Source: a virus
DNA length: 64,000 nt
Virus record (IMG/VR): IMGVR_UViG_3300025534_000182
Span: 1-64,000 of that record
Direction: 5' to 3' (one strand)
The translations under genes and the position numbers were made by a program. Shown in pieces: positions 42,093 through 42,207 of the stretch. The stretch's first letter is position 1; every line of letters begins with the position of its first letter. The notes under the pieces are model-generated. The model was not told where the DNA came from and did not search any database. It saw nothing but the letters and a program-made list of their open reading frames with translations.

Positions 42093-42138
42093 TTGACACT
42101 CCACATGTATTAAGACATGGGCTTTCTGGCGGTTGATC
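42093..42138 (-). mobile_element. 46-bp miniature IS200/IS605-derived single-hairpin element (RE ...GAGTGTCAA plus hairpin plus LE flank), with TTAC on the minus strand at 42139-42142
   Basis: ttgacactccacatgtattaagacatgggctttctggcggttgatc has the same architecture as the 6682 element. The hairpin arms covary (ccacatgt/acatgtgg). Confidence 0.5.
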
Positions 42139-42207
42139 GTAATTTTTAATGTAAATTTCGCAATTAGGACAATACATAGATATATCTTCCATTATTATCA
42201 CCTACGT

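Follow-up and report, generated by a model that had tools for sequence, protein, structure and literature searches.

Among the described systems close to the locus analysed here is IS608 of Helicobacter pylori, a member of the IS200/IS605 family, in which the left cleavage site (CL) TTAC goes with the guide (GL) AAAG and the right cleavage site (CR) TCAA with the guide (GR) GAAT (PMC5934647). The left hairpin has the target about 19 nt away on its 5' side, and the right hairpin is followed by TCAA after about 10 nt; removal of GR abolishes stable synaptic complexes (PMC3201880), and excision requires intact left and right ends (PMC10055086). The family is known to prefer the lagging-strand template (PMC6006769). 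PATEs are gene-less derivatives of IS200/IS605 elements with a transposase presumed to act in trans (PMC10055086, PMC7290912), and they often encode an omega-RNA as well (PMC10055086); one PATE-like example, about 271 nt in length, has a left-end hairpin and a separate, entire right end (PMC7290912). Transposase-free IS605 stem-loops have been described on Borrelia plasmids, some of them at gene 3' ends and diverging with some pairing kept (Delihas 2009, PMC2775950). According to PMC3333891, REPs and their TnpA-REP (RAYT) enzymes combine one short imperfect palindrome, akin to IS200/IS605 end hairpins, and a conserved tetranucleotide at its 5' foot with a Y1 HUH enzyme that processes it, the REPs having GTAG/CGTC tags, a high copy number, a frequent arrangement in pairs as BIMEs and a dedicated tnpA-REP.

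The locus lies in a window of 64,000 nt, which is the whole stretch of viral DNA that was analysed (positions 1 to 64,000 of the IMG/VR record IMGVR_UViG_3300025534_000182). An initial annotation of this DNA had proposed a miniature IS-derived element here, with a covarying hairpin, TTAC and TCAA boundaries and the same architecture as an element at 6682. Read on the minus strand, which is the gene-sense strand, the sequence is TTAC/GATCAACCGCCAG-AAAG-CCCATGTCTTAATACATGTGG-AGTGTCAA/, where the slashes mark the two putative cleavage sites, and the span between these sites is 46 nt. The features are as follows.

42093 to 42142, plus strand: the 50-base string quoted in the initial annotation, found at these coordinates by sequence match.
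42139 to 42142, minus strand: TTAC, the left cleavage/target tetranucleotide, identical to CL of IS608 and situated in the flanking DNA, outside the element.
42126 to 42138, minus strand: the left-end spacer GATCAACCGCCAG, which aligns with the left ends of IS-A (see below).
42122 to 42125, minus strand: AAAG, a left-end-type DNA guide at the 5' foot of the hairpin, identical to GL of IS608, which base-pairs with TTAC.
42101 to 42121, minus strand: the imperfect palindrome CCCATGTCTTAATACATGTGG, which folds into 5 bp, a bulged T, 2 bp and a 6-nt loop.
42093 to 42100, minus strand: the right-end tail AGTGTCAA, whose last 4 nt are the right cleavage site TCAA.

The proposed boundaries are exactly the left and right cleavage tetranucleotides of IS608, and the terminal motif that had been called conserved, GGAGTGTCAA, is present at the element end. 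The hairpin arms are complementary as claimed, but their quotation mixed the two strands, since the plus strand reads CCACATGT/ACATGGG and the minus strand CCCATGT/ACATGTGG. The distance from TTAC to the hairpin foot is 17 nt, compared with 16-20 nt in other minis (as we call such short single-hairpin units) and left ends. TCAA stands 8 nt 3' of the hairpin foot, yet the sole guide is AAAG, and the right-end guide GAAT is absent. On the minus strand the element is flanked 5' by ...AAAATTAC and 3' by AATAATAT... / AATAATATAGG. Its ends, GATCAACC... and ...AGTGTCAA, form no inverted repeats and there is no flanking target duplication; a classical MITE, with terminal inverted repeats and a target-site duplication, was therefore rejected.

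Like IS608 and its relatives, e.g. ISGst1-5 of Geobacillus stearothermophilus, the element combines TTAC and an AAAG at the 5' foot with a TCAA that follows a few bases after the hairpin and with an imperfect palindrome that contains an extrahelical T, all on one strand, to which the activity is confined in IS608. It differs from IS608 in having no gene, one hairpin instead of two and no GAAT guide, in its spacing (17 nt on the left and 8 nt on the right, as opposed to 19 nt and 10 nt), and in a bulged T displaced by two positions; for want of a second hairpin and of the right guide it does not qualify as a complete IS. With 46 nt and one shared hairpin it also differs from the PATE-like example, and an assignment to the PATEs was rejected because these require two end palindromes. 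The Borrelia stem-loops are the nearest published precedent; they are isolated left or right structures, whereas the present element is a complete hybrid with both cleavage tetranucleotides, and is found in a phage. As to the REPs, which by analogy are the nearest functional counterpart for a single tagged hairpin that would be handled by a Y1 enzyme, the tag here is AAAG, the 64 kb contain two minis, and the sole Y1 gene belongs to a standard tnpA-tnpB IS; a GTAG/CGTC tag, a high copy number and a tnpA-REP were not found at this locus, and a REP or REPtron was rejected. An omega-RNA was also discarded, as the 100-150-nt scaffold upstream of the right-end hairpin is absent, and so was an IStron, for which there is no space for an intron and no group I intron match. 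Our literature search found no description of a complete single-hairpin unit with both cleavage sites.

The predicted free energy (dG) of the 42093 hairpin is -3.1 kcal/mol with a z-score of -0.13, and 80 of 200 shuffled sequences fold equally well. The stem of the canonical mini reaches -6.7 kcal/mol, and relative to it the bulged T is displaced by 2 positions; the element thus retains, on one strand, the subterminal imperfect palindrome and its extrahelical base, in a form weaker than the canonical one. By thermodynamics alone the stability is at chance level. The significance that may be attributed to the element rests on homology rather than on stability.

This homology, which goes well past chance, was examined with an nhmmer profile built from 41 distinct copies, all of them from outside this phage and window. 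The profile matches 42093..42128 at E = 8.6e-6, as a single match at the locus, in keeping with the one hairpin seen there. In the whole 64-kb window it has only six matches, each of them on the minus strand: one at either end of both full ISs and one at each mini; motif searches of the window gave five related sites. The companion elements are the following.

6682 to 6730, minus strand: mini-1, a 49-nt single-hairpin mini, with TTAC at 6731..6734.
30518 to 31833, minus strand: IS-A, a tnpB-only IS605-family element with tnpB at 30667..31713 (Pfam OrfB_IS605 and Cas12f1-like_TNB).
52376 to about 54088, minus strand: IS-B, an autonomous IS605-family element with tnpA (Y1) at 53564..53977 and tnpB at 52476..53558, its left boundary being approximate.

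A 37-nt core of the 42093 element is collinear with the 6682 copy and shows 6 differences, all within the 21-nt hairpin, with 0 differences in the 8+8 bases flanking it, so that the architecture shared with the 6682 element was borne out. Derivation from an IS was likewise confirmed and can be narrowed to the IS200/IS605 family by the profile match and the IS608 tetranucleotides. TTAC, AAAG and TCAA all occur in the 42093 element, and GAAT is found in the window solely at the right ends of the full ISs. The tail AGTGTCAA equals the last 8 nt of IS-A, of IS-B and of about 70 right ends in viral contigs.

The left end of IS-A lies 3' of TTAC at 31834..31837 and reads TTAC/AATCACACACCACCAG-AAAG-hairpin, and its right end closes with TCAA at 30518; the right ends of both IS-A and IS-B read ...GAAT-hairpin-AGTGTCAA/. 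The extent of IS-B was taken from homology to a related locus (L035), and its proteins match Pfam Y1_Tnp (E 1.4e-44), OrfB_IS605 and HTH_OrfB_IS605, which makes it a candidate source of a transposase acting in trans. Its left end (54040..54095, minus strand; boundary approximate) has AAAA at the hairpin foot and TTAT 16 nt upstream, a guide/target pair unlike that of IS-A and the minis, which fits the published guide-target covariation. All IS ends in the window share their orientation with the 42093 element and lie on the G-rich gene-sense strand, the GC skew being -0.13 to -0.35 throughout; this common orientation is consistent with the lagging-strand-template preference of the family.

IS-A is inserted within a gene for an NT5C-type 5'-nucleotidase (window 30335..31998, minus strand). 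An N-terminal piece of 65 aa (31801..31998; Pfam NT5C positions 4-57 of 180) runs into the left end of IS-A, and a C-terminal-like stretch, NKSVVNTDWLVDDKEENFNGFKG, stands directly beyond the right end in a different frame. About 70 residues of the NT5C profile are missing, and therefore precise excision of IS-A would not restore the gene.

Alignment showed that the 42093 element and mini-1 both consist of the 5' part of a left end, one hairpin and a right-end tail. In mini-1 the left-end part is identical to the left end of IS-A, and the hairpin and tail are identical to the right end of IS-B. The full left ends carry on differently after the hairpin, with ATGAATGG.... In full-length IS-A left ends an outer 7-bp helix encloses guide and hairpin, and the minis are without its 3' half. 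The arms of this helix are ACCACCA/TGGTGGT and ACCGTCA/TGACGGT in two IS-A homologues, which amounts to two compensatory changes, and the left ends with the outer helix, at 31775..31833 of the window (minus strand) and at 1958..2016 of L017, a locus in a related phage that carries an IS-A homologue, fold with dG of -10.6 and -12.3 kcal/mol and z-scores of -2.2 and -5.8, respectively. On the alignment, the minis are to be read as left-end/right-end hybrids with a single hairpin, a point that the initial annotation had overlooked. The counterparts of the 42093 spacer are AATCACACACCACCAG in the IS-A of the window and AGTAAAACCGTCAG in L017, of which the latter is the nearest to it.

The differences between the two hairpins in the window had been taken as a sign of selection on structure rather than on sequence. 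Covariation as such does exist family-wide: among 84 distinct copies the hairpin pair 15:22 is C:G in 55, A:T in 14, G:C in 11, T:A in 1 and non-Watson-Crick in 3, and the 42093 element provides the fourth Watson-Crick type (T:A). Structural selection could not be upheld from the six differences themselves, only one of which is a true compensatory pair (C:G to T:A); the remaining stem changes relative to the 6682 copy open the closing pair and place the bulged T two positions away. The left end of L017 already has the T:A pair, which may have been inherited rather than evolved in place. From this left end, which also has the closer spacer (AACCGtCAGAAAG), the 42093 element departs at only four positions: a loop base, a base whose change opens the closing pair, and two bases that together move the bulged T two positions footward. 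When six substitutions were placed at random in the canonical hairpin CCCCTGCCTTTAGGCATGGGG, 39% of the mutants folded equally well by energy and 6% retained at least 7 bp. By our own calculation, C(21,6)/C(37,6), the chance that all six differences fall in the hairpin is about 0.02. The partly kept pairing could mean that some constraint is still acting, which is a point against a reading of the copy as decaying.

No second copy of the hairpin variant or of its spacer was found in IMG/VR, in 185,579 species genomes or in a metagenome collection. Searches with ACATGTGGAGTGTCAA (IMG/VR), CCCATGTN{4,8}ACATGTGGAGTGTCAA (genomes and metagenomes) and ATCAACCGCCAGAAAGCCC (IMG/VR) returned nothing or four chance matches, and a 25-mer conserved just downstream of the site had no match in the metagenome collection, which omits the JGI contigs with that 25-mer. 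The structure is conserved in the family, and the 42093 copy alone does not demonstrate selection; it looks like a diverging singleton and is itself probably an ordinary decaying example.

We compared the locus among related phages. Samples containing this phage are ENA ERZ795072 and JGI 3300002918, 3300033802, 3300033752 and 3300033753. Contigs from two other samples are identical to the window through the 42093 element, so that it is identical in three independent samples overall; this identity indicates that the element is stably kept, which is again a point against decay. A relative without the element was found in JGI 3300033802 and two sister samples; the 146-aa protein next to the site is 90% identical in this phage. 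Here about 40 nt around the site also differ and are rearranged, and the empty site is not clean. In the more distant relatives L081 and L082 unrelated DNA follows beyond the 146-aa gene. None of 50,697 phage records matched 40800..43600 by megablast, and the 146-aa and 250-aa neighbour proteins found only distant, non-syntenic loci in IMG/VR. None of the relatives found has a full-length IS at the 42093 site, which is a point against the history of insertion followed by collapse that is proposed below. IS605-family elements turn over fast in this phage lineage: none of the compared insertions is co-located in two phages of about 90% identity.

Two further observations concern the neighbourhood. 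Downstream of the element, the window (41970..42070, minus strand) and L078 (3530..3650) have in common a frame that ends ...TGCHDNVDI(D/N)FEGYIEKQ(R/K)NGTYRYVKIE before a stop codon; its four nucleotide differences between the phages comprise two synonymous ones and the D/N and R/K replacements, neither phage provides an ATG, GTG or TTG start for it, and its frame is not that of the CPNC-motif ORF described below. On a 136-kb viral contig (L074, 5560..5660) a tnpB 3' end is followed by another IS605-type right end, ...GAATCTCGTGGCTTTAGCCATGAGAGGTTCAA/. About 350 nt downstream of this right end, beyond one coding-like stretch, comes a SprT-like gene, the homologue of window 41201..41953.

The plus-strand ORFs 41939..42136 and 42133..42375 are antisense to a uniformly minus-strand gene array, and their disappearance in phages that lack the element had been proposed as a check. 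This was borne out in part: ORF 42133..42375, which begins at a TTG within the element, has no counterpart in the element-free phage, but ORF 41939..42136 persists there with a different end. On the minus strand, one small ORF runs into the element.

42088 to 42192, minus strand: a 34-codon ORF from the ORF list, translated as MEDISMYCPNCEIYIKNY followed by DQPPESPCLNTCGVSK and a stop codon.

The final 16 codons of this ORF are element sequence, and its stop codon is directly in the right flank. L076 has a called gene of 34 aa at this place, and in the relative without the element the counterpart of the ORF has a different C-terminus. An exact 17-mer from the small ORF, ATGTATTGTCCTAATTG, found only unrelated MYCPNC genes in IMG/VR. 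A conserved peptide motif was rejected, canonical copies having an in-frame TAG in the loop and standing in varied contexts.

A scan of IMG/VR for the hairpin-plus-tail pattern yielded 72 loci, mostly ordinary GAAT right ends; about half of all the loci have a recognisable TnpB just upstream. Five of the 72 are clear single-hairpin minis (L006, L020, L031, L055 and L065) and three more, with TTAT/AAAA-type sites, are probable ones. L006, in a phage about 91% identical to that of the window, is a 49-nt mini 100% identical to mini-1 at a different locus.

22089 to 22092, minus strand: a TTAC site, unoccupied in the window and occupied by the L006 mini in the related phage, as established by alignment.

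The difference between L006 and the window is exactly TTAC/49 nt closing in TCAA/, with no target duplication; the boundary is ambiguous by 7 nt, as AATCACA stands both at the element start and in the right flank. This repeat (L006 2672..2727 against window 22080..22092) may be due to chance, to a target preference or to an earlier insertion at this TTAC that left a relic. L020, which belongs to the L006 phage as well, shares its left-end 5' sequence with L006 and carries the right-end guide GAAT; one left-end 5' sequence thus occurs with at least two junction types, AAAG in L006 and GAAT in L020. At its mini-1 locus (L111, 3290..3370) the phage of L006 and L020 has no mini-1. In its place is a stub that consists of a right end only, CTACCCAAGAAT CCCCATGCCTAAAGGCGTGGGG AGTGTCAA/, and whose inserted A pairs with the T that is usually bulged; the SPFH/prohibitin gene before the stub is 100% identical, and the next gene lacks its N-terminal two thirds. 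In L026 (IMGVR_UViG_2911860687_000002) the hairpin is flanked 5' by TTGACACTC and 3' by GAGTGTCAA, and its palindrome reaches through the right-end tail, unlike every other copy.

The 185,579 species genomes contained 13 further AAAG-type single-hairpin minis (L098-L110) of a 45-nt class, composed of TTAC, 16 nt closing in AAAG, the hairpin and AGTGTCAA. Their hosts are Lachnospiraceae, Treponemataceae, Pyrinomonadales, a cyanobacterium and others, and Hominifimenecus microfluidus CLA-AA-H215 has three near-identical minis at separate loci. None of the 13 has a tnpB within 2 kb upstream.

From these results, we consider the 42093 element to be probably a non-autonomous single-hairpin remnant of an IS608-like IS200/IS605 member of the IS-A lineage, collapsed and decaying. 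A full element would have inserted 3' of TTAC within the small CPNC-motif ORF, and its interior would then have been deleted, by replication slippage or recombination, between the near-identical left-end and right-end hairpins, which form direct repeats of about 21 nt. The residue would be the left-end spacer with the guide AAAG, one hairpin and the right-end tail AGTGTCAA, and the copy would have diverged afterwards. The two junction types in L006 and L020 suggest independent deletion events and, together with the L111 stub, they show that such deletions occur in this lineage. As single-stranded minus-strand DNA the sequence could still form a weak imperfect hairpin, which a Y1 transposase, e.g. 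the one from 53564..53977, might bind, and the TTAC/AAAG pair for left-end cleavage is intact; with one hairpin, no GAAT guide and a displaced bulge, the element is nevertheless most likely inert. Its present effect would be passive: it lends the 34-codon ORF its last 16 codons and a spurious antisense ORF its start codon. A weaker alternative, which we regard as rather unlikely, is that the element is mobile, or was so recently, the single-hairpin unit of 46-49 nt being itself excised and inserted 3' of TTAC by a Y1 transposase in trans, as a REP-like substrate for a canonical IS200/IS605 TnpA, with AAAG guiding both TTAC and TCAA. It would account for the clean 49-nt presence/absence without target duplication between two phages about 91% identical, the L006 copy being 100% identical to mini-1 elsewhere in the window, and also for the five clear and three probable minis among the 72 viral loci and the 13 in bacterial contigs with no tnpB within 2 kb upstream; a Y1 tnpA is at hand within the window, and the polymorphism at L006 and the three copies in H. 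microfluidus are explained equally or more simply by transposition of the mini itself. However, every one of these observations would also result if a full IS inserted and then collapsed between its end hairpins, the L006 boundary is uncertain by the 7 nt of AATCACA, and the 42093 variant occurs only once, its stem weakened and its bulge shifted. Moreover, TnpA of the IS608 type is a dimer that synapses two hairpins, and the right-end guide is needed for stable synapsis and intact ends for excision (PMC3201880, PMC10055086). A broader form of this alternative, that the 45-50-nt hybrid units (TTAC/spacer-AAAG-hairpin-AGTGTCAA/) are widespread minimal mobile elements moved by canonical TnpA in trans and that the 42093 copy is an old, diverged member of them, is in our opinion unlikely.

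The overlap with the 34-codon ORF raises the question of whether the remnant was co-opted as coding sequence and its hairpin substitutions were selected at the protein level, the CPNC protein gaining a second cysteine pair (...SPCLNTCGVSK). Read in this frame, two of the six differences are synonymous (CCC>CCA and TGC>TGT), two abolish the in-loop TAG stop (TAG>AAT), one changes Ala to Thr (GCA>ACA) and one Trp to Cys (TGG>TGT), giving CxxC-x15-CxxxC. The ORF has a good ribosome-binding site (AGGTGA-5 nt-ATG), the gene is called in L076, and two of three differences from the related phage in the CPNC part are synonymous. On the other hand, the substitutions are too few for statistics, the ORF of the relative has an unrelated C-terminus without a second cysteine pair, and CxxxC is unlike the usual zinc-ribbon knuckle; a protein search found no homologues, the query being a conceptual two-frame fusion peptide from L078 and not the ORF of the window. 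We therefore judge co-option very unlikely. A transposon-unrelated phage regulatory hairpin, serving as a terminator or RNA-stability element, or a chance resemblance might be thought of, as the element is intergenic or closes a small ORF and CTTTCT follows the hairpin on the plus strand. A terminator was rejected, as 41800..42400 has no terminator-like site on either strand, and the sense strand is without a U-run; there is no match to an Rfam family, the stem is as stable as those of shuffled sequences, and every base of the flanks agrees with IS ends. This homology, as judged from the sequences, effectively refutes this explanation, which we hold to be extremely improbable.

With regard to annotation, the 42093 sequence is to be marked as an IS605-family remnant, the overlying plus-strand ORFs are to be dismissed, and the C-terminus of the 34-codon ORF is transposon-derived. 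The one-hairpin unit with both cleavage sites is a recurrent product, also across several bacterial phyla. If such units are formed by collapse only, they would correspond, within the IS200/IS605 family, to solo LTRs and would usefully mark past insertions. If they are mobile by TnpA, the minimal substrate for single-strand transposition would have to be redefined, with a bearing on the origin of REPs; as a widespread mobile class they would be about the smallest transposable units known and a plausible bridge from IS200/IS605 ends to REP elements.

Apart from the IS605-family elements, the window contains a full-length Pistol ribozyme at 62758..62830 (minus strand; Rfam RF02679, 67.8 bits) and a tRNA gene at 17178..17249 (minus strand; Rfam RF00005, 50 bits).
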